Notes under the pieces: generated by a model
Told to the model about the DNA's origin: nothing
Databases searched by the model: none
The model's input: only the letters and a program-made list of their open reading frames with translations
Program-made: the position numbers and the translations under genes
Shown: positions 41,019 to 56,563 of the stretch, piece by piece
Layout: the number at the start of each line of letters is the position of its first letter
Position numbering within the stretch: position 1 is the stretch's first letter
DNA from: Candidatus Desulfatibia profunda
GTDB taxonomy: Bacteria; Desulfobacterota; Desulfobacteria; Desulfobacterales; UBA11574
NCBI GenBank assembly: GCA_014382665.1
Contig: JACNJH010000134.1
Location: 21,103 to 85,102, forward strand
Direction: 5' to 3'
DNA: 64,000 nt

Positions 41019-42389
41019 CTAAGGTTCTTGCGGCTCGAGCCCATATCGCTTCATTTTCCGCCAGAGCGAAACCCGGTCGATGTCCATAATTTTTGCCGCC
41101 TTGGTCTTGTTTCCATCGCACTTGGTGAGTACCCATTTGATGTAATTTTTCTCTTGCTCCTCCAGGGTGGGAACCTCGCAAGAACGCTGACGGTATGTCT
41201 CAATAGACAGATTACGGATATATTCCGGAAGATCATCCACGCGGATGCAGGGACCGTTCTCCAGCGCCACAGCTCTCTCGATGACGTTTTCCAGTTCCCT
41301 GACATTGCCGGGCCAGCCATATTGACACAGTAACTCCATACATTCCCTGTCAATATCGTGAATTTCCTTCTTCATGGCCTGGCTTTTCTGGGCCAGAAAA
41401 TGAAGGGCCAGCAACGGAATATCTCCCCCCCGATCCGTTAAGGGCGGCGAATGAATGGTGATCACATTGAGGCGGTAATACAGATCCTGGCGAAAATGCC
41501 CTTTTTCCACATCCTCCTTGAGATCGCGATGCGTGGCAGCGATAAAGCGGACATCCACAGGAACCGGACTCTCTCCGCCAACCGGCAAAACCTCCTTTTC
41601 CTGAATGACGCGCAGCAGTTTGATCTGCATGCTCAAGGGCATATCACCGATTTCATCCAAAAAAACGGTGCCGCCGTCGGCCACTTTGATCAGGCCGGCT
41701 TTGGCTTTGGTGGCGCCGGTAAATGCATCCTTTTCATGCCCGAAAAGCTCATTGGCCATGAGTTCTTCGGTAAAAGAGCCGCAATTAAAGGCGATAAACC
41801 GTTTATCGGAACGGGGGCTTAAGTTATGGATCGCCCGGGCCACCAGTTCCTTGCCGGTTCCGCTTTCACCCAGTATCAAAACGTTGATGTCCGCAGGCGC
41901 GATCTGGCGGATGGTTTTCTGGACGTTCACCATCGCCTCGCTTTTGCCGACGATAAAAGGGATCTGCTGGTGCTGTGAGAGTGTTTCTCTGAGTGCCAGA
42001 TTTTCCACCTGGAGCCTGCGCTTTAAAAGCGCTTCCTGGGCAATTTTGCGGACCTCGTCGATTTTGTAAGGTTTGGCAATATAGTAATAGGCGCCTTCCC
42101 GCATGGCCTGTACGGATGAATCCACGGTGGCATATCCGGTGATCATGATCACCTCGGTGTACGGTTGAAGTTCCCTGGTTTTCCGTAAGACCTGCATCCC
42201 ATCCACGTGCTCCATTTTAAGATCCGTGATGACCAGGTCGAAACTTTGTGAGTTCAGCAGATCAAGGGCCTTTACCCCGCTGTCCACCGCAATGATGTCA
42301 TATCCTTCTTTTTTCAGGATATGTTCCAGATTTTTGCGGGAAATTTCCTCGTCTTCCACAACAAGCAATTTTTCTTTAGCAGATTTCAA
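41019..42389 (-). CDS. Sigma-54-dependent response regulator (REC + AAA+ + Fis-type HTH), NtrC family
   Basis: REC (LVITDLKM), Walker A GESGTGKE, GAFTGA motif, and a C-terminal HTH (NKTKAAKIMDIDRVSLWRKMKRYG). Confidence 0.93.
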   Translation of the reverse strand: MKSAKEKLLVVEDEEISRKNLEHILKKEGYDIIAVDSGVKALDLLNSQSFDLVITDLKMEHVDGMQVLRKTRELQPYTEVIMITGYATVDSSVQAMREGAYYYIAKPYKIDEVRKIAQEALLKRRLQVENLALRETLSQHQQIPFIVGKSEAMVNVQKTIRQIAPADINVLILGESGTGKELVARAIHNLSPRSDKRFIAFNCGSFTEELMANELFGHEKDAFTGATKAKAGLIKVADGGTVFLDEIGDMPLSMQIKLLRVIQEKEVLPVGGESPVPVDVRFIAATHRDLKEDVEKGHFRQDLYYRLNVITIHSPPLTDRGGDIPLLALHFLAQKSQAMKKEIHDIDRECMELLCQYGWPGNVRELENVIERAVALENGPCIRVDDLPEYIRNLSIETYRQRSCEVPTLEEQEKNYIKWVLTKCDGNKTKAAKIMDIDRVSLWRKMKRYGLEPQEP

Positions 42390-42494: not shown

Positions 42495-43922
42495 TTAAAG
42501 TATATTTGACGATTGACCACCGGTAGGCAAAAAAACCGTAAACGTAGCACCTTCTCCTTCCTCACTGGTGACTTTTATCCAGCCGCCGTGTTGTTCAATA
42601 ATGCCGTATACAATCGAAAGCCCCAATCCCGAGCCTTTGCCGACATCTTTTGTGGAAAAAAAGGGGTCGAATATCCGTGTAATATTTTCTTTGGCAATAC
42701 CGCAGCCGGTATCCTGAACCTCAAAAGAAAACTCTTGTTGATTCTCTTCCTTTGAAGCTGTAATTTTCAGGGTCCCCTCATCTCCCACCGCCTGGAGCGC
42801 ATTCAGGATGAGATTGATCAGAACCCGTTGAATCCGATCAGGATCAAGATTCGCCTGAATATCCGCCGGTACATCCAATTCAAGTTTGACATTTGCCGGT
42901 AATTCCCTTTTGATCGATTTAACGGCTTCATCGACCAGGTCAATAAAATTGACCGTTTTCACCTTGAGAGTCCGTTCCCGGGAAAATTCCAGCAGCGCTT
43001 TGACAATATTCCTGGCGCGATCCACCTGTTTTTCGGCACCAATCAAGAGCTCCTTTTGATATTCTGGATCACCTTGCCCAAATTCTTCCAGCAGGATTTG
43101 GACGGACGTGGAAATATTATTGAGCGGGTTGTTCAATTCATGGGCCACTCCGGAGGTTAATCTCCCTAAAGAAGCCAGTTTTTTGGCCTGAATGAGTTCT
43201 TCGCTCCGTTTATTCAGTTCCTTGATCATATTGTTCAGGCTGATGACCAGAGATTCGAATTCGTCGCCCGTGGCTATTTCGGGTATGTTCTTAAAATCAC
43301 CCGTGGCTATTTTGGCAATGGCATCCTCAATCATTTTTAAGGGGCGATTGACGTTGAAAATTAAAAAAAGAGCCACCAGACCGGAGAGAATAACGATGGG
43401 CACCAGGGCGATAAGATGAATCGTTTTGGATTTGGCTGTAAGATCTCGAGTAACTTGACCTTCTTTTGCTAAAATATTCTCCAGTTCGGTTGTAAGCTTG
43501 CGCCCCTGCAACTGAATTAGAGAAATTTTTGCCGGGGGGATCAATAACGTGCCGTTTTGATGCAATTGCAAAAGTTCTGAAAGCGATTTTTTATATGCCC
43601 TCAGCTCGGTCAGCCGCTCAGGGAGATTTTTGGTCAGGGTAAATTTTCCGTATTCTGAAGTGATGTTTAATAAGATATCTTCGGCTGTATTAATATAAAC
43701 AAGGGCCTGGTCGATATTCTCTTTGTCCAATGTTAAAAAAAAGTTCTTTTCATAGCGGCGGGCCTCCAGGATGGTGTTAAAAAGATTGTTTTTCCTTTCT
43801 ATGATTTGGAGTTTTTGATGAAGAACGTACTGGCTGTGATAACTCCGCAGCCATATGAGTCCGCTGATCCCTATAAAAATCGCGAATGCTAAAAAAATCT
43901 TTTGCCTGATACTGATCTTCAT
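42495..43922 (-). CDS. Sensor histidine kinase (2 TM + HAMP + HisKA + HATPase)
   Basis: H-box SGVAHELNNPLN and the G-boxes DTGCGI and GSGLGLSIV. The start is probably MKISIRQK at 43922; the ORF is open back to 43955. Confidence 0.88.
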   Translation of the reverse strand: MKISIRQKIFLAFAIFIGISGLIWLRSYHSQYVLHQKLQIIERKNNLFNTILEARRYEKNFFLTLDKENIDQALVYINTAEDILLNITSEYGKFTLTKNLPERLTELRAYKKSLSELLQLHQNGTLLIPPAKISLIQLQGRKLTTELENILAKEGQVTRDLTAKSKTIHLIALVPIVILSGLVALFLIFNVNRPLKMIEDAIAKIATGDFKNIPEIATGDEFESLVISLNNMIKELNKRSEELIQAKKLASLGRLTSGVAHELNNPLNNISTSVQILLEEFGQGDPEYQKELLIGAEKQVDRARNIVKALLEFSRERTLKVKTVNFIDLVDEAVKSIKRELPANVKLELDVPADIQANLDPDRIQRVLINLILNALQAVGDEGTLKITASKEENQQEFSFEVQDTGCGIAKENITRIFDPFFSTKDVGKGSGLGLSIVYGIIEQHGGWIKVTSEEGEGATFTVFLPTGGQSSNIL

Positions 43923-44109
43923 GCTGGTTAACACCCCCTGATCGGCACAGCTCACCCGCTGTTGACGCCGGCCTGAAGCTCCTGGTGCGGCCGTCAGGAA
44001 TAATAAGGAAGATCAACATGACATGTTACGTCTTTTACACCGGAAATTTTCCGTGCAATTTCCTGGCCGTGGCTGAAGCATCCCCGTGAAATCGTAATAA
44101 TTGCCATAG

Positions 44110-45924
44110 TTATTGGATTCCATAGAAGAAATAGAGAATGGTAAGCTCCACCGTTAAAAAGAGGACGGTCATAAAAGCGCCTGCTTTGGCGTAATCCACC
44201 GTGCGATAGCCGCCCGGTCGCATGACCAGGGCATTGACCTGGTGCGTCGGCAGCACGAACGTATTGGAGGCCGACAATCCCACGACCAGAGCGGCCATAC
44301 GGGGATCTCCGCCGGCCATGACCGCCATGTTCATGCACAGAGGAACCAAAAGAACCGTGGCACCGACATTGGAAATCACCAGGGTGAAAAAGGAAGTCAG
44401 GATGCCGACCGCGGCCAGCAGCACAATCGGAGAAGGCTGGCCCAGGAAGCCCAAGATCGTTTTGGCAATAAAAGCCGCCGTTCCGGTTTTTTCAAAGGCC
44501 ATTCCCAGGGGAATCAGACCGGCCAGCAGGAACACGGTCATCCAGTCCACGGAGTAGTAGGCCTCATCAATGGTAAGCACCCCGGTGATGATCATCCCCA
44601 GGGCCCCCGACATCAGTGCCACCGAAAGCTGAACCTTGAAAATTAAAATCTGCAACAATGATACCGCCAGCCAGGCTATGGCCAGCTTGGCTTTTTCGGG
44701 GCGCAAGATTTCACCTTCCAGGGCCGTGGCAAAGGATAATGCCCGCGGTTGCGGCTTGTTTCTTAAAATATGGAACTTTTCCCAGGGACCGTGAAGCAGC
44801 AGGGTGTCGCCCATTTTCAGCCGGATATGGGTAAGTCCGCTGTAAAAAATCTTGTTGCCGGTGAACAGCGCTACCGGATTTACGCCGTAAAGCTCCTTAA
44901 AATTAGCTTCGCTAATGGTTTTGCCGATCAATTCAGACCTCGGCGAAACAACCGTTTCCGCCATGCCGGCGTTGGTCATGGCCAGGCTATCGGCAAATCC
45001 TTCCAGAGCGGGCTTGACCTGCCAGCCGTATTCTTCGGCCAGTTTGTGAACCCTTCCGGTTTTACCGACCACGGCAAGGTCATCGCCGGCTGAAATTTTA
45101 TCGGTACTGCGCGGCACGAAATTTTTCTGTTTTTTGGCTGAAAAATTAATGGCGACCACCGTCACCAGGAATTTTGCTCTGATGTCCAGATCTGCCAGGG
45201 TTTTAGGCGTGGCAAAGGTATCGGGAACATGCAGCTCGAAAATATTTTCAAGCCCTTGATATTCCTCCATCAGCATGGCCGTGACGCCTTTATCGGCTTC
45301 GCCCCCGGCGGCCGGCAGGATGTATTTGCCGAAAAAAGTAAAATACAAGATTGCGCTGGAAAGCAGGCAGACTCCGATCGGCGTCTGGGTAAAAAGACCG
45401 AAGGGCTCTAATTTTTTTCCGCCCAAAACCAATAAATCATTCAGCAGAATGGTCGGACTGGCACCCACCAGGGTGATGGTTCCTCCGATAATGGCACAGA
45501 ATCCCATGGGCATGAGAACCCGGGAAACCGGCATCCCCATTCTTTTGGAAATGCGCTGGGCCGCCGGAAGAAACAGCGCCGCCGCCCCGATGTTCTGCAT
45601 CATGCTGGAGATTATTCCGACGGTGCCGGATATAAGTGTAATCACTTTCTTTTCACTGTTTCCGGCCAGCTTGATGATGGGACTGGCCACCTTGTTCATT
45701 ACGCCGGTCTTGTCCAATCCGGCGCCGATGATAATAACGGCAATGATGGAACAGACGGCATTACTGCTCAAGCCCACAAACGCTTCTTTCGGAGTTACCA
45801 GCCCGACCAGCGGCAGTAAAACCATCATCATGATTCCCACCACATCAACCCGTACCCATTCGGAAATAAAAAGAAAAACCGCAAAACTAAGCACGATCAT
45901 GGTCATAATCATCTGAGATGTCAT
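44110..45924 (-). CDS. SLC13/DASS-family anion transporter with two central TrkA-C domains
   Basis: 604 aa polytopic protein. Two TrkA_C-like inserts (…ISAGDDLAVVGKTGRVHKL…, …LKMGDTLLLHGPWEKF…). Confidence 0.88.
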   Translation of the reverse strand: MTSQMIMTMIVLSFAVFLFISEWVRVDVVGIMMMVLLPLVGLVTPKEAFVGLSSNAVCSIIAVIIIGAGLDKTGVMNKVASPIIKLAGNSEKKVITLISGTVGIISSMMQNIGAAALFLPAAQRISKRMGMPVSRVLMPMGFCAIIGGTITLVGASPTILLNDLLVLGGKKLEPFGLFTQTPIGVCLLSSAILYFTFFGKYILPAAGGEADKGVTAMLMEEYQGLENIFELHVPDTFATPKTLADLDIRAKFLVTVVAINFSAKKQKNFVPRSTDKISAGDDLAVVGKTGRVHKLAEEYGWQVKPALEGFADSLAMTNAGMAETVVSPRSELIGKTISEANFKELYGVNPVALFTGNKIFYSGLTHIRLKMGDTLLLHGPWEKFHILRNKPQPRALSFATALEGEILRPEKAKLAIAWLAVSLLQILIFKVQLSVALMSGALGMIITGVLTIDEAYYSVDWMTVFLLAGLIPLGMAFEKTGTAAFIAKTILGFLGQPSPIVLLAAVGILTSFFTLVISNVGATVLLVPLCMNMAVMAGGDPRMAALVVGLSASNTFVLPTHQVNALVMRPGGYRTVDYAKAGAFMTVLFLTVELTILYFFYGIQ

Positions 45925-46308: not shown

Positions 46309-46863
46309 TCACACCATGGAATAAACAAACAATTTGCGCTCCAATCTTTCACCCTCTTCTACTCTGCTTTCACCCGCTTGTTCTATGGATTCCGACACTA
46401 CAAAGGCAACCTCCCCGAACTCTTTTCTGAGCGATTCAACGGCCTCGTCGGTTTCACTGAACTTGATCACATGGGAAAAAGGAATTCCTTCCCGGGCGGC
46501 CTCTTCTTGAAACAGCCGGGCGTTATTTGCCGAAAGATCTTTAAAATCCTGGCAAATCTTGTCTCGCGAAGAGGAAAACAATTTGAATGTGTCGCAGGAC
46601 AACGGTGCGGTGTTTAAGGCCACGATCTCATAAGACATCCGTTTGGCCATTTCCAGAGCATAATCGATAATCTCTCTGGAAAAGGTACTTTCCCTACCGA
46701 TTACAAGAAGTTTATCGGACTCTCTCGGCATTTCTTCCGGGGTAAATTCGCGGGCATATTCCGGCTGTCCTGCCTCAGCAAAGGTGATCGCTTCCTGATA
46801 TCGGTCCATCTTGCCGGTCAACCTGTTTACCTTCCGCTTAATTTTTCCAAAAATACCTGACAT
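46309..46863 (-). CDS. USP-like protein with N-terminal AITFAEAGQPE motif
   Basis: 184 aa. N-terminal ...RYQEAITFAEAGQPEYA..., then a USP-like alpha/beta segment (KLLVIGRESTFSREIIDYALEMAKRMSYEIVALN). Confidence 0.6.
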   Translation of the reverse strand: MSGIFGKIKRKVNRLTGKMDRYQEAITFAEAGQPEYAREFTPEEMPRESDKLLVIGRESTFSREIIDYALEMAKRMSYEIVALNTAPLSCDTFKLFSSSRDKICQDFKDLSANNARLFQEEAAREGIPFSHVIKFSETDEAVESLRKEFGEVAFVVSESIEQAGESRVEEGERLERKLFVYSMV

Positions 46864-46911: not shown

Positions 46912-47418
46912 TTAGCCGCACATCACCACCAGCGGAATGAACAATGACTGTTTTATTTTTCGGAACATGGGCGTTTCTTTTACCGCAAGGCCCTTCTGGC
47001 GGCGACCCTTTCCAGGGGAATCGTAGATGGTAAGCACGACATCCCGATGCGCATTGACATAATTAATAATCTCTGTATCAGGAGCCCCCGACGTTATGGT
47101 GAAGTGACAGGGAACACCTTCTTTTTCCGATTCCGGTAAAAGCTGCTTGATATTCTTCAAGGCTTCGGACATGATTTCGGCGGCGGTCTCATGTTCCCCT
47201 GCTTCGGCAAAAGTTGCGGCCACCAAAGAGCTTTCAAGGTATCTTCTGGCATGGCCGGCGCCTTTTCGCATCTTTTTCAGATATTCGCCGTAATTGCGGG
47301 GGTCGATAATTTGAAACACATTCAACTCCGCCTTAATGCGGTTGCAAAGCTCTATGGCGTAACGAAATGCCTTCTGATCAGGGGTAATACCGTCTACGGC
47401 CAATAATACTTTTTTCAT
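46912..47418 (-). CDS. Universal stress protein family member with an internal ATFAEAGEHE motif
   Basis: MKKVLLAVDGITPDQKAFRYAIELC...NVFQII is USP-type. It has an insert LVAATFAEAGEHETAAEIM. The ORF is open back to 47454. Confidence 0.7.
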   Translation of the reverse strand: MKKVLLAVDGITPDQKAFRYAIELCNRIKAELNVFQIIDPRNYGEYLKKMRKGAGHARRYLESSLVAATFAEAGEHETAAEIMSEALKNIKQLLPESEKEGVPCHFTITSGAPDTEIINYVNAHRDVVLTIYDSPGKGRRQKGLAVKETPMFRKIKQSLFIPLVVMCG

Positions 47419-47454
47419 TTTTATTTTCCCCGTCTGCTTTGACGACCGGTACAA

Positions 47455-47640
47455 CTACATTCTCAGGCCCGGCCTGGTTTCTTCCCGTCTCGTAATCCCA
47501 GACTCGATTCGCTTGTCCTTTTCCTGCTTGGGTCGATCGTACAGGATATCCATTGCTCTCTCGGGTTCTCCGGCTTCGGCAAAAGTGATTGCCGCCATCA
47601 TCCTGTCGAAGTTGTCGATTAAATTTTTAAGATTAAACAT
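47455..47640 (-). CDS. 61-aa protein consisting essentially of the AITFAEAGEPE motif region
   Basis: The ATG at 47640 is preceded by GGAGGAAG. Sequence: MFNLKNLIDNFDRMMAAITFAEAGEPERAMDIL.... The 81-aa version in the ORF track would start inside the promoter. Confidence 0.5.
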   Translation of the reverse strand: MFNLKNLIDNFDRMMAAITFAEAGEPERAMDILYDRPKQEKDKRIESGITRREETRPGLRM

Positions 47641-47684
47641 GACCGCTTCCTCCTTGTTAAAATTTGATTTTATAAGTAGAATGA

Positions 47685-47699
47685 GCAACTTCCATGCCA
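47685..47699 (-). promoter_or_regulatory. Sigma-54 promoter TGGCAT-GGAAG-TTGC (minus strand)
   Basis: Perfect -24/-12 geometry, about 45 nt upstream of the ATG at 47640. Confidence 0.62.
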
Positions 47700-47777: not shown

Positions 47778-47794
47778 TGTTGCAATTTGCAACA
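47778..47794. promoter_or_regulatory. Perfect 8-1-8 palindrome TGTTGCAA-T-TTGCAACA, a candidate enhancer-binding-protein site
   Basis: It lies about 80-95 bp upstream of the sigma-54 element. Further (T/A)GTTGCA half-sites occur at 47865-47871 and 47938-47944. Confidence 0.4.
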
Positions 47795-47998
47795 TGTTTT
47801 TAATGTATGGTAATATTTATTGAAATATAAGTATGTTATGATATATTGCAGAAAAAAGGGCTGATGTTGCAGATTGTAGCGGCAAATATTCCCATGAAAC
47901 CATCAGGCGCGTGGGTTGCCAGGCGGCGTGTGAAAACAGTTGCAGATCAATCTGAAGCTGTCCTATACTTACGCCAAAAACCGAAATGAGGTCATGTC

Positions 47999-49996
47999 AT
48001 GCGCATATTCAAAAAAGGCCCGGAAAAAGGGACACCTTCGGAGATAGAAGAATTAAAGGAGGTGGTGCTTGGCCTTAAAATGCCGGAGCCGGTTCAAAAA
48101 GTCGCGCTGAAAGAAATCGAGAGGCTGATGAAAACCAGTCCCGCCAGTGCTGAATATACCATCGGCATTAATTATCTCGATTATCTGGTGAGCCTCCCAT
48201 GGAACAGGATGACCGAAGACAATCTTGATATTGAACGGGCCGAGTCGATTCTGAATCAGGAGCACTACGGCCTGACCAAAATCAAGGATCGAATCCTGGA
48301 TCATCTGGCGGTCAGAATATTGAAGATGTCCCGGAAACACAGGATCCTGGTGGTGGATGATGAAGAAATGACCCGCAGGAATCTTGAGCACGTTTTTCAA
48401 AAGGACGGTTATCATGTCGATACGGCGGCCAGCGGGGTCGAAGCCCTGAATCTATTGGAAAAAAGTGCCTATGACGTCATCGTGACGGATCTTAAGATGG
48501 AAAAGGTGGACGGCATGGACGTCCTGGGGCAGGCCAAGGCCAAAGACCCCAACACCGAGGTGATTATCATCACGGGGTATGCCACTGTTACAACGGCCAT
48601 TGAAGCCATGAAAAAGGGATCTTACCACTTTCTGGCCAAGCCGTTGAAGCTGGCTGAAATCAGATCAACCATCAAGACCGCCTTATTCAAAAAAATGGTT
48701 CGGCTGGAACCCAAGGGCCCTGTGCTGTGCTTTGCAGGTCCGCCCGGTACCGGCAAAACTTCTCTGGGGATGTCCATCGCCCGGAGCCTGGAGCGAAAAT
48801 TCATACGCATTTCCCTGGCCGGGATGAAAGACGAAGCCGAAATCAGAGGACATCGCAAAAGCTATGTCGGCGCGCTGCCCGGTAGAATTATCCAGGAAAT
48901 TCGCCGGGCGGAATCGAAAAATCCGGTCATGATGCTGGATGAAATTGATAAAATCGGGCAGGATTTTAAAGGGGACCCGGCTTCGGCCTTGCTGGAGGTT
49001 CTCGACCCCGAGCAGAATGCCAACTTCGTTGACCACTATCTGGATGTTCCCTTTGATCTTTCCAAAGTCATGTTCATCACCACGGCCAACACCGTTGATC
49101 TCATCCCCGGTCCGCTTCTCGATCGACTGGAGGTTATTTACCTTTCAGGATATACAGAGGAAGAAAAGGTGCAAATAGCAGCAAGATATTTGGTATCCAA
49201 AGAGATAGAGGAAGCAGGGCTCGTTGAAGATCCGGCCGTTTTTACAACCGAAGCCATTCACAAGATCATCAGGGAATACACCCGCGAAGCCGGTCTCAGG
49301 AATCTCCAGAGGCAAATCGCTTCGATCTGCCGTAAAACCGCCCGCAAAGCGCTGAAAAGCGGCCGCCAAAATATATCAAGCCCGATAACGCCGGAGACGG
49401 TGGAGCAACTCCTGGGTCCCGGAAAATATCATCTGGAAGTTGTCGACGACAAAGGAAGAATCGGTGTGGCCACCGGTTTGGCATGGACGGCCGCCGGCGG
49501 AGAAATCATCTTCATCGAAGCTGTAAAAATGAAAGGTAAAAGCCGTCTGACCTTAACGGGTTCCTTGGGTGACGTGATGAAAGAATCCGCCCAGGCGGCC
49601 TTAAGTTATATTCGCAGCCATACCGAACTGCTCAATATCCCTGAAAGTATGTTCGATGAATATGACATTCATATTCACGTTCCGGCCGGTTCCATTCCCA
49701 AGGATGGACCTTCGGCGGGATTGACCATTGCCGTTGCCTTGATTTCGCTGTTGACCGGACGGCCGTGCAAAAGAGAAACGGCCTTGACAGGAGAAATGAC
49801 CTTAAGCGGCAGGTTGCTTCCGGTGGGCGGCGTGAAAGAAAAGGTTCTGGCGGCCCACCGGGCCGGGGTAAAATCTGTGGTTTTTCCGGCCAAAAACGAG
49901 GCGGACATTAAAGATATCCCCGATGATATTAAAAAGGATTTAAAGATTATTACCACCGATGAATTGGCGGAGATCGTTGATTTGGTGCTAGAATAA
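47999..49996 (+). CDS. lon: LonA-type protease lacking the N-terminal LON domain and carrying an inserted receiver (REC) domain before the AAA+ module
   Basis: The Lon pre-AAA helix region (SPASAEYTIGINYLDYLVSLPWN...EHYGLTKIKDRILDHLAV) is followed by a REC domain (aa ~114-230: VVDDEE, VTD164LKM, IIIT192GY, LAK214P). Then come KGPVLCFAGPPGTGKTS, the AAA+ module, and the protease domain (PKDGPSAG, GGVKEKVLAAHRAG). Confidence 0.9.
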   Translation: MRIFKKGPEKGTPSEIEELKEVVLGLKMPEPVQKVALKEIERLMKTSPASAEYTIGINYLDYLVSLPWNRMTEDNLDIERAESILNQEHYGLTKIKDRILDHLAVRILKMSRKHRILVVDDEEMTRRNLEHVFQKDGYHVDTAASGVEALNLLEKSAYDVIVTDLKMEKVDGMDVLGQAKAKDPNTEVIIITGYATVTTAIEAMKKGSYHFLAKPLKLAEIRSTIKTALFKKMVRLEPKGPVLCFAGPPGTGKTSLGMSIARSLERKFIRISLAGMKDEAEIRGHRKSYVGALPGRIIQEIRRAESKNPVMMLDEIDKIGQDFKGDPASALLEVLDPEQNANFVDHYLDVPFDLSKVMFITTANTVDLIPGPLLDRLEVIYLSGYTEEEKVQIAARYLVSKEIEEAGLVEDPAVFTTEAIHKIIREYTREAGLRNLQRQIASICRKTARKALKSGRQNISSPITPETVEQLLGPGKYHLEVVDDKGRIGVATGLAWTAAGGEIIFIEAVKMKGKSRLTLTGSLGDVMKESAQAALSYIRSHTELLNIPESMFDEYDIHIHVPAGSIPKDGPSAGLTIAVALISLLTGRPCKRETALTGEMTLSGRLLPVGGVKEKVLAAHRAGVKSVVFPAKNEADIKDIPDDIKKDLKIITTDELAEIVDLVLE

Positions 49997-50150: not shown

Positions 50151-50939
50151 TCAAGGCTTGTGCTGGAGGGCCCTTTGCTTGAGGTGTTGGAAAACGTCGG
50201 GGCCTTCCGTGGTCGCTGGTTCCTTCCCCGAGGCAACCTGTTGTATGAATTCAATTTTGCCCTTGTCAAAACTGCCGACCTGCTGGTCAATGAAATAGAG
50301 CGTGTTGTGGATAATGCTGTAAATGACCATTGGCCCGAACACGATTTCGCCGCTTTCTTTACGGGTTAAGACACCGAAAGCTCTGTGGTGGCTCATCTGG
50401 AAGGCTTTGGGAGCCGGACTGAACGCCAGAATTTCGGCAAAAAGTTCTAAAGATTCAATGACGCCGTCGGCATATTTTCGCTGCAACGAGGCCGTGCCGT
50501 CGTTTACAATTTCGTCAAGATCGGATTCCTCAAAGGAAAGATCCAGGGTATCGATGCATTCTTTTTGGATGGTTCTAACGGATGCTTCTTTTTTGCTGAT
50601 GACCACGTCGCTGTCATTTAATATCTTGATAACGTTACGGATGCTGATCATTTCCTTGACCGTGGGACTTTTGCGCATAGCCACGTCCTCGACAGACGTG
50701 TTATAGATGGCCAGATCATTGTCGAGTACCAGGATTTTGGTTTTTTTAGCATCGGCATCCTGTAAGTACAGATTCAGATCTCGCTGCTTACGGTACGTAT
50801 AAGTGCTCATTTTAAGCAGGCTGCGCATGAGCTGCTTGTCTATCCTGCGGTCGCTGTCCGGCGGTCCGATCGTCGCAAGCACCTGCGCTGCCAGGCTGTC
50901 GATCTTGATTTTCTTTAAAAGATTTTCCTTAAAAGACAT
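50151..50939 (-). CDS. Hypothetical protein (262 aa)
   Basis: Long ORF with ordinary composition. I recognise no family. Confidence 0.5.
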   Translation of the reverse strand: MSFKENLLKKIKIDSLAAQVLATIGPPDSDRRIDKQLMRSLLKMSTYTYRKQRDLNLYLQDADAKKTKILVLDNDLAIYNTSVEDVAMRKSPTVKEMISIRNVIKILNDSDVVISKKEASVRTIQKECIDTLDLSFEESDLDEIVNDGTASLQRKYADGVIESLELFAEILAFSPAPKAFQMSHHRAFGVLTRKESGEIVFGPMVIYSIIHNTLYFIDQQVGSFDKGKIEFIQQVASGKEPATTEGPDVFQHLKQRALQHKP

Positions 50940-52612: not shown

Positions 52613-53524
52613 ATGTATATGGATGGAATGAATTTAAATTATAAGGCCTTGATGGATAATCTTTTTGACGGTGTCTATTTCGTCGATAAGACCGGAACGA
52701 TCCGATACTGGAATAGAGCGGCTGAAAATATAACCGGTTTTGCGGCCGATGAAGTCTTGGGCAAACGCTGCTCAGATAATGTTCCGGTCCATTTTGACAG
52801 TGACGGGCACAATCTCAGTAAGGGCTTGTGCCCCCTTGAAAAATCCATCACAGACGGTGCCGCCCTGGAAACGGAACTTTATCTTTGCCATAAAAACGGG
52901 CGTAGAATCCCGGTGGCTATCCGTATTACGCCGGTCAGGGATTCTGAAGGATCGATCATCGGTGCTTTGGAATTATTCAGTGACATCAGTTCAAAATCAG
53001 CAACCCTTTTAAGAATCAAAGAGCTTGAAAAGCTCTCATTGACGGATCCACTGACACGGCTGGCCAACAGAAGATTTGTTGAATCGGAACTGAGCAACCG
53101 TCTTCAGGAACTGGCTCGTTTTAAATGGCCGTTCGGTGTTCTTTTTATGGATATCGACCATTTTAAACATTTTAACGACACTTACGGACATGACGTCGGC
53201 GATTCGATTTTAAAAACATTGGCGAATACGGTGGTCGGTAATACCCGGCCGTTTGATCTTTTCGGACGCTGGGGCGGCGAAGAGTTTATCGGCATCATGC
53301 GGAATGTAGATCAAAAGGGTCTGCAATATATTGGAAACAGGCTGCGGTTGCTTGTGGAAGCAGCTTGCGTCGTCGTAGAAGAAAAGAAGATGAATGTCAC
53401 GGTTTCTTTGGGGGGAACCATGGCCAAACCGGATGATACCGTTGAAGGACTTATCAAGCGGGCCGACCGGCTGATGTTTCAAAGTAAAAAGGCCGGGAGA
53501 AACTGTTTGACGGTTTCCGATTAG
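52613..53524 (+). CDS. PAS-GGDEF diguanylate cyclase
   Basis: PAS (IRYWNRAAENITGF). GGDEF domain with active site GGEEF and an RPFD I-site five residues upstream. Confidence 0.9.
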   Translation: MYMDGMNLNYKALMDNLFDGVYFVDKTGTIRYWNRAAENITGFAADEVLGKRCSDNVPVHFDSDGHNLSKGLCPLEKSITDGAALETELYLCHKNGRRIPVAIRITPVRDSEGSIIGALELFSDISSKSATLLRIKELEKLSLTDPLTRLANRRFVESELSNRLQELARFKWPFGVLFMDIDHFKHFNDTYGHDVGDSILKTLANTVVGNTRPFDLFGRWGGEEFIGIMRNVDQKGLQYIGNRLRLLVEAACVVVEEKKMNVTVSLGGTMAKPDDTVEGLIKRADRLMFQSKKAGRNCLTVSD

Positions 53525-53540
53525 CTTGGATTTTAACTGC

Positions 53541-55685
53541 TTATCGGTCCAATTCGGCTCTGACCGCCAATCCGATCTTCTCGATAGAAAACGGCTTTCT
53601 CAGATAGCAGCCCGCACCTAAACTCAAGGCCTCTTTGGCGCGATCGGTTTCCGAAAACCCGCTCACGATGATCGCCTTCTGGCCGGAATGGAATTCAAGG
53701 ATCCTTTTGTAGGTTTCAAGGCCGTCAATGCCGGGATCCATGATCATATCCAGAATCAAAAGATCGGCAGAGTGTTTTTTCATGTAATCGACCGCTTCTT
53801 CTCCGCTGGAAACTGCTTTCACGGCGTAACCCAATTTTTCAAGTATGTTACAGGTCAAATTACGCTGCTCCTCCACATCATCTACAACCAGAACGGACTT
53901 GCCGTTTCCCATATAATCTTTTATGGAGATTTGCCGCTTGTCACTGTCCGGTTTCTTTCGCGTTGCCGGGATATAGAGCGTAAAAGTGGTTCCTTTTCCA
54001 TAGGTGCTCTGTATCTCGATGAAACCTTTATGGTCCTTTACCGTACTCCAGACCACGGTCATTCCCAATCCTGTTCCGCTCTTTCCCATGGCTTTTTTTG
54101 TATAGAACGGCTCAAAGATTCTCTCCATGTCCGCAGATGAAATCCCTGTGCCTGGATCAGAAACAGAGAAAACAACATAGTCCCCGGGCGGTGCAGCTTC
54201 ATTCTTGATCAGGGATCGGTCCAGGTAACGGTTTTCGGTGGCCAGGATGATTTTGCCTCCCGAGGGCATGGCTTCCGCAGCATTGGAAACCAGGTTCATG
54301 ACCATCTTGGACAGATGGACCGGAGATCCTTGAACGTTAAACAGGCTGGTATCGAGGTCTGTTTCCACCTGAACGCCGCAATGATAGTATTTCATCTTGT
54401 CATGTTCGGGACTCGTCAAGTATTCCAATACGACATTATTCAAGTTAACCACTTCGTTGACGACAACGCCTCTCCTGGCAAGATTCAGTAGATCCTGCAC
54501 AATCGCTGCAGCCTTTTCTCCCGACTTCTTTATGGTCAAGATGGGCCCCTTCAAAGGGCTGTTCTCCGGAATATCCATAAGCAGAAGCTCGGGATAACTG
54601 ACCAAACCGGACAAAATATTGTTCAGGTCATGGGCCACTCCTCCGGCAAGTGTGCCGATGGCTTCCATCTTTTGGGAATGGATGAGCTGTTTTTCCAGAG
54701 CTTTTCGCTCTGTAAGGTCTCTGACCGACAGGATTACGGCCTTTTCCCCGCTGTGGTGAATTGATGAAAAATTGATCTCTACGTCTCTCATTATCCTGTT
54801 CTTACCGCGCAATCGAACTTCGAGGTGTCTGCCGGAAGCCCCGTCCTCTAAGAGGGACTGGATTGTGCGGAAATCCGTATAATCGGTTGTGTTGTCCAAA
54901 AGAGCTTCGAATGCTATCTTGGTAAGTTCTTCAAATCCGTAGCCCGTTATCTCTTCATATTTGGGATTGGCGTAGACGTGCATCCCCGCCTGAATAATGG
55001 CGATACCGTCGTTTGAACTTTCAGCCAGGATCCGATATTTTTGTTCACTATCGCGCAATTTCTCATATTGGAGGGTGCTGTACACCATGATGGCCACAAA
55101 GTTCGATATCACGTTGAACAGGTAGATGTCGTTTTTTTCAAAAACATTGTTCTCCCTGTGACTGAGGTTGATGACCCCAAAACGTTTTCCTCCGATCATC
55201 AGGGGAATGGAGATAAGGCTGCCAATCGTTACCTTGCTGTTATCGCGGGATAAAAAATATTCGGACTCTTTTGCATTCTGGATGAGAACACTCCTCTTTT
55301 CCAGCAATGCCTGCCCGGCAGCGCCTTGCCCCAAATTGAAGAGGTATCGGACACCCTGCTTTGAAAACACCTTTTCAGGTTTCAGCACATAAGCTCTTTT
55401 TTCGGGGTCGCTGGCGCAGACGAGGAAGAGTCGACGCTTCTTATGATCAAACAGCATGATCGAGCAATTCTGAGCGCGAGTATTATGGATAATGACGTCA
55501 AGAATGTGTTGACATGTTTTTTTGAAACTGCTGATATGAAAAAGGGCCTGCCCAATCTCGCGGACCATGGAGAGCTCGGCGATCTTCTCCTCGAATCGGC
55601 CTTGAATGCCCTGGATCTGATCACGGAGAAGCTTGTTCTCCAGTTCTAAAGCGTTAATCTTTTTCTCCATCATAACTGAAAACAA
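53541..55685 (-). CDS. Hybrid sensor histidine kinase (GAF + PAS + HisKA + HATPase + REC)
   Basis: H-box [13 protein letters not shown]-boxes DPGTGI and GTGLGM, and a C-terminal REC (LLILDMIMD). Confidence 0.9.
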
Positions 55686-55693
55686 TCAATAAT

Positions 55694-56563
55694 TTATTTT
55701 ATCAATTCGAAGAATTCTTGGATACTTGAACGTTTCTTTTTCAAGACCTGTAGAAGTTCCTTCAGGTCTTTTTCAGAAAGCCTTAGCTCCCGGGCGGTGG
55801 TTTTCGGTATATCAGGCACGGAATTTCCGCTAGATCCAATACCGGCCTGATGACATAGAAAATCAGCAAGCCCTACAATCGTGGCTTGGTATCGGTAGGG
55901 CTGGGGACAGTCCGTCGGATCGTGATGAAAGCGGCATGGATAAACGAGGCTTTCAGGAAAATTCCATCTTTCCATTAAAAGTCCTGATAGAACAGCATGG
56001 TCGATACCCAGAATCTCTTTTTCTTTGAGAAATAAAACAGTCTCGTTTTTTCCCGCGTCCTCCAGCACAGCTTTATACTCCTTAGGAAAGTATACCACGA
56101 AAATGACTTTACCCATGTCGTGGAGAAGCCCGTTTAAAAATAGTTTCTCATCCGCTTTCATGCCTGTTTTCATGCCGATTTCTTTGGCTGCTGTGGCACA
56201 CCCGACAGAGTGAAGCCACAAATCTCTTATATCAAAGACTTCATGAACAGGGTTCTGCTTGAACGCTGAAAAAACACTCATTCCAATGGTTAAGCCGATG
56301 ATTTCATTGAAACCAACGACCGTTATGGCCCGTTGAATGGTGTCAACCTGTTTCATCTGGCCGTAGTAGGCTGAATTGGATAGTCTGAGGATTTTGTTGG
56401 CCAAGGCCTGGTCATTGTTGATGAAACCGGACAGATCTTTACTGGAAGTCTTTTCGTCGATGGCCGCATTCAAAACCTTATCCACGACCATGGGCAGGGT
56501 AGGCAACTGCGTCTTTTTGTTGCGCACCAGGTCTTCGATCTTATCTTTTAATTTCGATACCAT
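55694..56563 (-). CDS. HDOD-domain signalling protein
   Basis: LPTLPMVVDKVLNAAIDEKTS...LANKILRLSNSAYYG and GLLHDMGKV are typical of HDOD. Confidence 0.88.
   Translation of the reverse strand: MVSKLKDKIEDLVRNKKTQLPTLPMVVDKVLNAAIDEKTSSKDLSGFINNDQALANKILRLSNSAYYGQMKQVDTIQRAITVVGFNEIIGLTIGMSVFSAFKQNPVHEVFDIRDLWLHSVGCATAAKEIGMKTGMKADEKLFLNGLLHDMGKVIFVVYFPKEYKAVLEDAGKNETVLFLKEKEILGIDHAVLSGLLMERWNFPESLVYPCRFHHDPTDCPQPYRYQATIVGLADFLCHQAGIGSSGNSVPDIPKTTARELRLSEKDLKELLQVLKKKRSSIQEFFELIK

Follow-up and report, generated by a model that had tools for sequence, protein, structure and literature searches.

The window (the entire 64-kb stretch of DNA analysed) codes for a LonA-type protease that has lost its LON domain and, ahead of the ATPase motor, bears a receiver (REC) domain. 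We refer to this protein as REC-Lon. With a probability of about 0.65, we regard it as a second, proteolytic response regulator of the histidine kinase encoded at the same locus.

Domain architecture of REC-Lon

The gene (47999..49996, forward strand) starts with ATG and codes for 665 residues, arranged in the order helical N-terminal segment, REC, AAA+ and Lon_C. The earlier note, made from the sequence alone, had described this ORF as a LonA-type protease with an inserted REC domain. The ORF itself, Pfam domain parsing (Response_reg, AAA, Lon_lid and Lon_C are all matched) and phmmer alignments against PDB sequences confirm that description. The protein scores 745.8 bits with the TIGR00763 ('lon') model (cut-off 608), 574 with NF008053 (PRK10787; cut-off 891) and 98 bits with LonB models (cut-offs 517-723). 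No second lon gene was found within the window.

Residues 1-112 (47999..48334, forward strand) open with the conserved N-terminus M-x-[IL]-F-[KR]-K, of which M1 and F4 are conserved across the family, and continue with the LonA helical segment that precedes AAA+. In phmmer searches against PDB, residues 13-112 match residues 248-347 of Thermus thermophilus Lon (7p6u), and residues 7-111 match residues 1-105 of the B. subtilis structure 3m6a. The AlphaFold2 (AF2) prediction has helices at 15-25, 30-44, 51-65, 78-88 and 93-103; the LonA-type three-helix bundle before AAA+ is thus retained. What is missing is the LON/PUA-like N-domain, the absence of which had already been noticed. Pfam gives no LON_substr_bdg (PF02190) match in REC-Lon, and this domain occurs in 0 of 240 relatives with precomputed Pfam domains. 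Nor is an N-domain encoded in frame upstream, since the gene is preceded by a 358-bp intergenic spacer and its reading frame opens just three codons before the ATG.

The REC domain occupies residues 113-238 (48335..48712, forward strand). Response_reg (PF00072) matches residues 116-225 (E-value 2.6e-28) with model positions 1-110 of 111. In the AF2 prediction, five strand-helix units at 115-236 (pLDDT 75-89) make up a full-length (beta-alpha)5 receiver fold. The domain has the phospho-acceptor D164, the acidic pair D120/D121, T192, the switch residue F211 and K214. Its best matches are NtrC1 and AtoC, and the CpdR model scores 75.8 bits.

The REC insert separates the final helix of the N-terminal bundle from AAA+ strand 1. 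On its C-terminal side, residues 239-664 match 7p6u residues 352-775, and residues 238-664 match residues 347-771 of E. coli Lon (6u5z; both phmmer against PDB). Judged by these alignment boundaries, ~126 residues (113-238) stand in for a linker of ~4 residues, so that the insert length, initially put at ~117 aa, has to be corrected to 126 aa. Its proposed location at the LonA linker before AAA+ holds both in the PDB alignments and in an alignment of 18 canonical LonA proteins with 11 REC-Lons. In the latter, the segment between positions 95 and 250 (window numbering) has 156 residues in all 11 REC-Lons, as against 30 residues in 14 of the 18 canonical LonA proteins and 31-46 in the other four.

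The AAA+ module (residues 239-455, alpha/beta plus lid; 48713..49363, forward strand) has Walker A GPPGTGKT, Walker B DEID and pore-loop Y289. Pfam AAA (PF00004) is contiguous at 243-383, and Lon_lid is matched at 404-455. The S16 Lon protease domain (residues 463-664; 49385..49990, forward strand) carries the S572/K615 dyad (Lon_C, E-value 2e-84). Features of sigma-54 activators were looked for in REC-Lon, and neither PF00158 nor PF02954 (at E <= 0.01) nor the GAFTGA motif was found. The AF2 monomer was built with a 48-sequence family alignment. Its single domains are confident, the pTM is 0.42 and both REC linkers have pLDDT < 50; because of these values, no conclusion was drawn on the placement of REC.

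Conservation and origin of the REC-Lon family

No fewer than 240 cluster representatives share this architecture and insertion site; their MAG labels are Desulfobacterales, Desulfobulbaceae, Syntrophales (Desulfobacterota), Nitrospirota and Geothermincolia. All five receiver signature residues named in the earlier note are correct: D120, D121, D164 and K214 occur in 241/241 sequences, while position 192 is T in 239 and S in the other two. An aromatic switch residue (Y or F) occupies position 211 in 240/241, and the length and junctions of the insert are fixed in 240/241. Together with the Pfam match, this conservation upholds an intact REC. The AAA+ and Ser-Lys protease domains likewise are intact, as had been supposed, with Walker A K253, Walker B D314/E315, Y289, S572 and K615 invariant in 241/241. 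Because residues of REC, ATPase and protease are all kept across the 241 sequences, conservation points to purifying selection on phospho-acceptance as well as on proteolysis.

In the NJ analysis, the non-REC parts of REC-Lons form one clade (bootstraps 100/100) nested among canonical LonA. Judged by this tree, REC-Lon is a single-origin subfamily of LonA. A library of representatives, searched in order to count REC-Lon clusters at 50% identity, gave ~4 matches with the single-stretch REC-Lon pattern. High-scoring multi-stretch matches in this library were rejected as REC-Lons; they are Lon proteins without REC in which the AAA+ module is duplicated or triplicated in tandem.

The same data bear on the reading that REC-Lon is a pseudogene or an artefact of assembly, gene calling or fusion. 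A relative at locus L089, on a 2-Mb contig, is indeed split by gene calling into a 191-aa REC and a 444-aa AAA-Lon. However, the same unbroken ~665-aa frame with the same junctions is found in at least 240 independent representatives from many samples and assemblers, and the catalytic residues are invariant across the family. The orthologue survey thus yielded a conserved family, and the artefact or pseudogene reading, to which we assign a negligible probability, is refuted by family size, the shared insertion site, the NJ clade and residue conservation.

Linkage to a histidine kinase and a sigma-54 response regulator

Two further genes of the window accompany REC-lon at other loci. One codes for a sensor histidine kinase (42495..43955, reverse strand), in which two TM segments flank a ~140-aa sensor region and are followed by HAMP-HisKA-HATPase (Pfam, hydropathy). 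The other (41019..42389, reverse strand) codes for an NtrC/AtoC-type sigma-54 response regulator (Pfam), the REC of which we compared with Lon REC. Of the 13 loci whose flanks could be used, 12 have orthologues of both linked to REC-lon; HAMP in the linked HisKA-HATPase kinase orthologues was counted where Pfam detects it. Kinase orthologues flank REC-lon in L001-L003, L005-L008, L084-L089 and one further locus found by reverse look-up. The loci combining REC-lon, kinase and regulator span several phyla and represent at least three gene orders. The order lon-HK-RR on one strand is that of the Nitrospirota-type loci; it is found in L084-L087, L089 and the same reverse-look-up locus, and in L084 and L086 the lon stop overlaps the HK start. 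In the L090/L091 locus pair, no kinase was found between or near lon and the regulator.

Lon REC and the REC of the partner regulator are 49% identical and 78% similar, gap-free over 127 aa. On average, Lon RECs are 49% identical to partner regulator RECs and 53% identical to each other, with 32-40% identity to the second sigma-54 regulator of the same loci and 28% to the REC of the hybrid kinase in the window. The beta4-alpha4-beta5-alpha5 region is nearly identical in Lon REC and regulator REC (ITGYATV..A.EAM..G...Y.AKP.K..E.R), and the likely kinase-contact residues N128 and H131 of REC alpha1 are common to both. By sequence, Lon REC is a close paralogue of the partner regulator's REC.

The idea of the earlier note that proteolysis is controlled by a histidine kinase thereby gains independent support from the 12/13 linkage, the lon-HK-RR order and the 49% REC identity. 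Genomic linkage supports a functional link between the kinase and REC-Lon, and this should not be taken to imply proof that the kinase phosphorylates both RECs. The window genes located 3' of lon (a 262-aa ORF, citrate synthase, PAS-GGDEF, the hybrid kinase and HDOD) were also considered as members of the system and were rejected because they are not conserved at other REC-lon loci.

The divergent operon and its probable sigma-54 promoter

Upstream of REC-lon there is always a divergent operon, probably driven by sigma-54, that codes for a ~60-aa protein, USP-like proteins and an anion transporter. The divergent position of REC-lon relative to a sigma-54 motif-protein/USP operon, pointed out previously for the window, is therefore a recurrent arrangement. 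In the window, the small protein (47455..47640, reverse strand; 61 aa) carries A-x-x-F-A-E-[AE]-[GN]-E as its motif; its tail is basic, and R-x-x-L-R-A is conserved at the C-terminus. Its gene is divergent from or adjoins REC-lon in every locus, and reverse look-up starting from the small protein found REC-lon adjoining in 3/3 cases. No Pfam or NCBIfam match was found for this family, and every one of its 1541 clusters is labeled 'hypothetical'. The neighbourhood of REC-lon thus reveals an unannotated small-protein family of ~1,500 clusters.

The next gene (46912..47454, reverse strand) codes for a universal stress protein (Pfam Usp, E-value 2.4e-10) with an internal copy of the A-x-x-F-A-E motif. 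The M at 47418 is probably where its translation really begins; orthologues in L001, L002 and L088 have 168 aa. It is accompanied by a 184-aa protein (46309..46863, reverse strand) with the motif near the N-terminus and with orthologues in other REC-lon loci. For this protein neither Pfam nor NCBIfam gave a family, its relatives having only sub-threshold Usp matches (E-value 6e-4), and its body is probably degenerate USP-like. Two kinds of protein, the ~60-aa protein and the USP-like protein of 167-185 aa, thus share the helix A-x-x-F-A-E-[EA]-[GN]-E, and in Desulfobacterales a USP has it as well.

The transporter (44110..45924, reverse strand) is of the CitMHS/DASS type with TrkA_C domains (Pfam); Nitrospirota-type loci have a TauE/TSUP transporter instead. 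Both DASS and TSUP/TauE proteins are candidate sulfate transporters of sulfate reducers (PMC5840216), and this sulfate-transport review does not mention the REC-lon locus. We treat a sulfate-transport role of the locus transporter as a lead only; the anion moved might be sulfate or sulfite.

A sigma-54 promoter-like element, TGGCATGGAAGTTGCT (47684..47699, reverse strand), lies ~44 nt upstream of the small-protein gene. Equivalent elements 5' of the small gene in L001, L003, L004, L007, L008 and L083 bring the number of such loci, with the window, to seven. For REC-lon itself, a sigma-70-like candidate promoter (47820..47847, forward strand) reads TTGAAA-16-TATATT with a TG extension (10/12, a match to the consensus only). 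The divergent intergenic region also contains the palindrome GTTGC-N5-GCAAC (47779..47793), which is present twice in each of the L003 and L006 intergenic regions and may be an enhancer site of the sigma-54 regulator.

Comparison with known systems

REC-Lon is closest to canonical LonA (E. coli, B. subtilis, T. thermophilus and M. taiwanensis; 6u5z, 3m6a, 7p6u and 7fd4), with which it shares 50-60% identity in AAA+, lid and S16 domain and the helical segment before AAA+. It differs in lacking the LON/PUA-like domain and the long helix and in having the 126-aa REC where canonical LonA has a ~4-residue linker. The genomic setting is different as well, canonical LonA being found in a housekeeping context and REC-lon in a two-component locus. 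LonB and LonC also are without the LonA N-domain and have an inserted element tied to the AAA+ module. In LonB and LonC, however, it is Walker A and Walker B that the insertion, a TM hairpin or a helical insert, sets apart, whereas the REC-Lon insert precedes a contiguous AAA match (243-383).

Activators of the NtrC1/DctD/NtrC/AtoC type (REC-AAA+-HTH) resemble REC-Lon in having REC directly N-terminal to a ring-forming AAA+ ATPase. In NtrC-type activators REC phosphorylation is reported to govern assembly of the AAA+ ring (PMC7175178). The AAA+ module of REC-Lon, in contrast, is of the Lon type, without Sigma54_activat, GAFTGA or HTH_8, and the predicted output is proteolysis rather than remodelling of RNA polymerase.

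Receiver-controlled proteolysis has been described for E. coli RssB, the phosphorylation state of which controls ATP-dependent proteolysis (PMC10755785). RssB and CpdR (Caulobacter/Brucella) are separate, trans-acting ClpXP adaptors, whereas REC-Lon carries its receiver within the chain of the protease, here a Lon. Phosphorylation of a canonical Lon occurs in Xanthomonas citri, reportedly on a serine of the protease domain; for REC-Lon, the proposed site is an Asp in a dedicated receiver, and the proposed donor a histidine kinase. The activity of X. citri Lon is reported to be regulated by phosphorylation (PMC5784255).

Proposed role of REC-Lon and alternatives

If REC-Lon is a second response regulator of the locus kinase, the membrane HAMP kinase (42495..43955) would phosphorylate two targets, the sigma-54 activator and D164 of REC-Lon. 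The NtrC-type activator (41019..42389) would then drive the divergent operon of small motif protein, USP proteins and anion transporter. REC adjoins the ATPase ring directly on its N-terminal side; once phosphorylated, it would alter how the ring assembles or how the pore is reached, and so switch ATP-driven proteolysis, much as REC and AAA+ are coupled in NtrC1, DctD and NtrC. Candidate substrates would be the sigma-54 regulator or those proteins of the divergent operon that bear the motif. We infer phosphotransfer from the locus kinase to REC-Lon, any effect on proteolysis, in whichever direction, and the substrates. Because the AF2 monomer leaves REC placement undefined, control of gating or ring assembly by phosphorylation is proposed purely by analogy. 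REC might also replace the N-domain in substrate selection.

A more elaborate and rather doubtful version is a 'transcribe and degrade' circuit, in which one kinase would switch both the sigma-54 activator and the N-domain-less Lon, and the operon proteins would be substrates or regulators of Lon. The A-x-x-F-A-E-[EA]-[GN]-E helix would be a recognition tag or an allosteric ligand for the entrance formed by REC and the helical bundle, and the R-x-x-L-R-A tail of the small protein might have the same role. If true, synthesis and half-life of an anion-transport/stress module would be co-controlled in anaerobes.

The close relationship between the two RECs can also be read differently. REC may act as a bait that captures the sigma-54 regulator, by heterodimerisation at the alpha4-beta5-alpha5 face, and presents it for degradation; REC would then be the substrate selector in place of the N-domain, resulting in phosphorylation-dependent feedback turnover. 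The mean identity of 49%, the nearly identical beta4-alpha4-beta5-alpha5 region and the loss of the substrate-recognising N-domain would all fit. Moreover, REC-REC heterodimers between paralogues have a reported precedent in BldM-WhiI (PMC4125116). Yet the similarity of the RECs is equally explained by one common kinase, and we consider the bait unlikely, although compatible with REC-Lon being a second response regulator rather than exclusive of it.

Alternatively, REC might be a phosphate sink that competes with the sigma-54 regulator and so tunes transcription, while Lon activity itself would be insensitive to phosphorylation. Sink receivers in branched pathways are established in chemotaxis and other phosphorelays, and the sharing of N128 and H131 in alpha1 would suit such competition. 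However, to work as a sink REC would not have to be built covalently into the mouth of an AAA+ ring, always at one site, and the concomitant loss of the N-domain would be left unexplained; the insert length and junctions, fixed in 240/241, suggest mechanical coupling instead. This makes a sink distinctly improbable. A purely structural REC, standing in for the N-domain as an oligomerisation element or scaffold of a constitutive housekeeping Lon, would agree with the plain 'endopeptidase La' label in databases, and many receiver-like domains do function without phosphorylation. Pseudo-receivers, however, typically lose acceptor-site residues, whereas here none of the 241 sequences has lost D120, D121, D164, T/S192 or K214 and all but one retain the switch aromatic, and a kinase is genomically coupled to REC-lon. 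We therefore find a phosphorylation-independent role very hard to sustain.

Literature searches for a receiver-Lon fusion found no paper on this architecture; the response-regulator censuses by Galperin were outside their coverage. New here is the linkage of REC-lon to a kinase and a sigma-54 regulator. Two-component control of AAA+ proteolysis normally goes through separate adaptors such as RssB and CpdR. If REC-Lon is indeed a proteolytic response regulator, no link from a histidine kinase to protein degradation would be known that is more direct than this receiver within the protease chain, and proteolysis would be an added class of response-regulator output. Because the family replaces the N-domain, it also constitutes a natural experiment on the need for this domain and on N-terminal gating of the Lon ring. 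The conserved neighbourhood gives a candidate kinase, sister regulator and substrates. In databases, the REC-Lon family is masked by its annotation: the entry identical to the window protein (P0001) is named 'endopeptidase La'.

Domain architecture and insertion site

The gene for the 665-aa receiver-containing Lon (REC-Lon; REC, receiver domain) lies at 47999..49996 (+), as the earlier note had described it, with a ribosome-binding site (GAGG) 8 nt upstream of the ATG. Pfam assigns Response_reg to residues 116-225 (E 2.6e-28), AAA to 243-383, Lon_lid to 404-455 and Lon_C to 463-664 (E 2e-84). The absence of the N-terminal LON domain, also claimed in the note, is borne out, since this domain has no Pfam match in the protein and the frame upstream of the ATG is open for 3 codons only.

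Alignment to solved structures matched residues 13-112 to T. thermophilus Lon 248-347 and residues 239-664 to 352-775. Based on these boundaries, a four-residue linker is swapped for a 126-residue segment. We also compared the equivalent interval in 18 canonical LonA from many phyla and 11 receiver-containing proteins. It comprises 30 residues in 14 canonical LonA and 31-46 in the other four, whereas all 11 receiver-containing proteins have 156 residues and an identical junction position. Pfam, the structure alignment and the interval lengths thus agree with the note in placing the receiver ahead of the AAA+ module, and every receiver signature residue it had named is correct.

Conservation and origin of the family

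Relatives were collected in two database searches, seeded with the window protein and with a relative 54% identical to it. In each search, the best 120 cluster representatives (120/120) had matching Pfam content, including PF00072, and about 665 aa; PF02190 was listed for none of the best 120 in either search. The source labels, as given in the MAG records, include Desulfobacterales, Desulfobulbaceae, Thermodesulfobacteriota, Syntrophales, Nitrospirota, Candidatus Geothermincolia and one 'Betaproteobacteria' MAG.

The conservation pattern points to purifying selection on the phosphorylation chemistry as well as on the ATPase and the protease. In 241 sequences, the receiver acidic pair (D120, D121), phospho-acceptor (D164) and lysine (K214) are invariant, as are Walker A K253, Walker B D314 and E315, pore-loop Y289 and the protease dyad (S572, K615). 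Position 192 (T192 in the window) is T or S throughout, the aromatic switch at position 211 is Y or F in all but one sequence (240), and 240 of the 241 likewise share the same length of receiver insert.

A neighbour-joining tree based on 523 non-receiver columns groups the receiver-containing proteins in a single clade (100/100 bootstraps) nested among canonical LonA. This topology indicates one origin of N-domain loss plus receiver gain. Under 50% clustering the family shrinks to a handful of clusters, and we therefore consider it populous yet compact.

At one related locus on a 2-Mb contig (L089, 3725-5651 (-)), REC-lon is split into two calls, REC (191 aa) and AAA-Lon (444 aa), which may reflect a sequencing-error frameshift, or a genuine split or pseudogene. 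The representative library also contains 890-1380-aa Lon proteins without REC, with two or three tandem AAA+/Lon_lid modules and a single Lon_C (P0121, P0123, P0125-P0127, P0129, P0130 and P0137); P0124 (710 aa) has two Lon_C stretches instead.

Genomic linkage to a kinase and a sister regulator

The REC-Lon gene stays closely tied to those of a kinase and of a sister regulator whose receiver is paralogous. In the window, a minus-strand row divergent from REC-lon encodes a 61-aa protein, a USP, a 184-aa protein, a CitMHS/DASS transporter with TrkA_C domains, a HAMP-HisKA-HATPase kinase (42495..43955) and an NtrC/AtoC-type sigma-54 regulator (41019..42389). Two predicted TM segments of the kinase bracket a sensor region of ~140 aa.

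For comparison, we used independently assembled related loci, 16 in all (L001-L008, L083-L090 and a further one without DNA); L091 duplicates L090, and the contigs of L004, L083 and L008 stop at or within lon. Of the 13 loci whose flanks are usable, 12 have orthologues of the partner kinase (HK) and regulator (RR) linked to REC-lon, the sole exception being the L090/L091 pair (lon then RR, without kinase). The arrangement varies. In Desulfobacterales loci, lon diverges from a co-directional row of RR, HK, transporter, 185-aa protein, USP and small protein; in L005, RR and HK share one strand, divergent from the small protein followed by lon; in L006, HK then RR lie ~3 kb upstream of lon; L007 and the Nitrospirota-type loci have lon, HK and RR all on one strand, with overlapping lon stop and HK start in L084 and L086. 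Since the linkage persists through so much rearrangement and 45% sequence divergence, it provides strong evidence that the pair and REC-lon are functionally connected.

Five Nitrospirota-type loci (L084-L087, L089) have two kinase + sigma-54-regulator pairs, one in the lon-HK-RR row and another at the end of a divergent operon (small protein, 167-aa protein, 83-aa TM protein, TauE, tandem USP). The genes downstream of REC-lon in the window are not conserved at the other loci. A convergent 262-aa ORF (50151-50939 (-)) has no Pfam or NCBIfam match and is not found beside REC-lon at other loci. A signalling cluster (52613-56563) encoding a PAS-GGDEF cyclase, a GAF-PAS hybrid histidine kinase with REC and an HDOD protein shows no conservation with REC-lon.

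Relationship between the two receivers

In the window, a gap-free alignment of the Lon and partner regulator receivers over 127 residues gives 49% identity and 78% similarity; identity of the Lon receiver to the hybrid-kinase receiver is only 28%. Across 8 loci, mean identity is 49% between Lon and partner regulator receivers, 53% among Lon receivers and 63% among partner regulator receivers. The second sigma-54 regulator of Nitrospirota-type loci has a receiver 32-42% identical to the others and 32-39% to Lon receivers. Receivers contact kinases mainly through helix alpha1; its pattern ..R.NLEH.. occurs in 13 of 16 Lon and partner-regulator receivers, but not in the second regulator. Based on the identities and the shared helix, the data fit one kinase serving both receivers and suggest that the insert derives from the partner regulator lineage.

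Possible mechanism

We infer that the kinase acts on D164 with an effect on proteolysis: it would phosphorylate this residue, and phosphorylation would alter the proteolytic activity. According to sequence and AlphaFold, receiver strand 1 starts within ~10 residues of the final N-terminal bundle helix, and the C-terminal helix (218-236) reaches AAA+ strand 1 within ~6 residues. The insertion is thus tight and in line, and the receiver of NtrC-family activators occupies a matching topological position. Receiver phosphorylation governs ring assembly in these activators (PMC7175178). Because of this shared position, we favour phosphorylation controlling ring assembly or pore access in REC-Lon (probability roughly 65%). 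Receiver placement is not defined by the AlphaFold monomer (pTM 0.42, linkers with pLDDT <50).

Alternatively, the receiver might form a REC-REC heterodimer and so act as bait for the partner regulator; we hold this to be rather unlikely, and it would be compatible with phospho-control of assembly or pore access. We give somewhat less credence to a phosphate sink, and a structural, phosphorylation-independent role seems quite improbable. It is scarcely conceivable that the architecture is an artefact.

Relation to known systems

REC-Lon shares its motor and protease mode with LonA but lacks the N-domain, one defining LonA feature. Its receiver-motor coupling resembles that of NtrC-type regulators, yet the features defining bEBPs (Sigma54_activat with GAFTGA, HTH) are missing. 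RssB and CpdR follow a similar logic, but in trans on ClpXP rather than in cis on Lon. Identity as LonB or LonC was rejected. The protein is named plain 'endopeptidase La' because TIGR00763 (NCBI) scores it above cut-off. The residue phosphorylated in Xanthomonas Lon is reportedly a serine. That phosphorylation switch, reported on a canonical Lon (PMC5784255), differs in mechanism from REC-Lon's.

No description of a receiver-Lon fusion was found in the literature searched, with response-regulator census papers outside its coverage. Domain databases surely show the architecture, and we therefore call it 'uncharacterised', not 'never seen'. REC-Lon offers a clear-cut and conserved case, amenable to experiment, in which proteolysis would be a direct output of two-component signalling; its kinase is defined, and a sister regulator and candidate substrates are encoded nearby.

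Divergent operon and its promoter region

The small protein (55-61 aa) adjoins lon in all loci with upstream sequence (among them window 47455-47640 (-); L001 7474-7650; L005 3720-3902; L006 9423-9602; L007 2285-2458; L083-L087). Its invariant motif, A-x-x-F-A-E-[AE]-[GN]-E-x-x-x-A, includes the conserved A17, F20, A21, E22, E25 and A29; the protein also has a basic tail and, at the C-terminus, a conserved R-x-x-L-R-A(D). A profile search returned 1541 clusters, all 'hypothetical' and without a Pfam domain, and some relatives are tandemly duplicated (93-103 aa, e.g. L004 522-863). Three members chosen solely for long contigs all divergently adjoin a receiver-Lon gene, making the association reciprocal.

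The motif is also N-terminal in the operon's 166-185-aa protein (window copy 184 aa, 46309-46863 (-)), whose match to the Usp family is sub-threshold only, and internal in the Desulfobacterales USP (window copy 46912-47454 (-)). Six-frame translation of the 64 kb yields exactly three occurrences of the pattern, all within these three adjacent genes. Depending on lineage, the operon transporter is CitMHS/DASS or TauE/TSUP, always an anion-transporter family. DASS and TauE/TSUP are among the candidates discussed for sulfate or sulfite transport in sulfate reducers (PMC5840216); we treat this as a lead, not a result.

A sigma-54 promoter-like element, TGGCAT-N5-TTGCT (TGGCATGGAAGTTGCT, 47684-47699 (-)), precedes the small gene by 44 nt, and 6 other loci retain it. 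About 90 bp beyond it, and immediately 5' of the lon promoter region, the palindrome GTTGC-N5-GCAAC (47779-47793) is a candidate enhancer site; L003 and L006 have two copies each.
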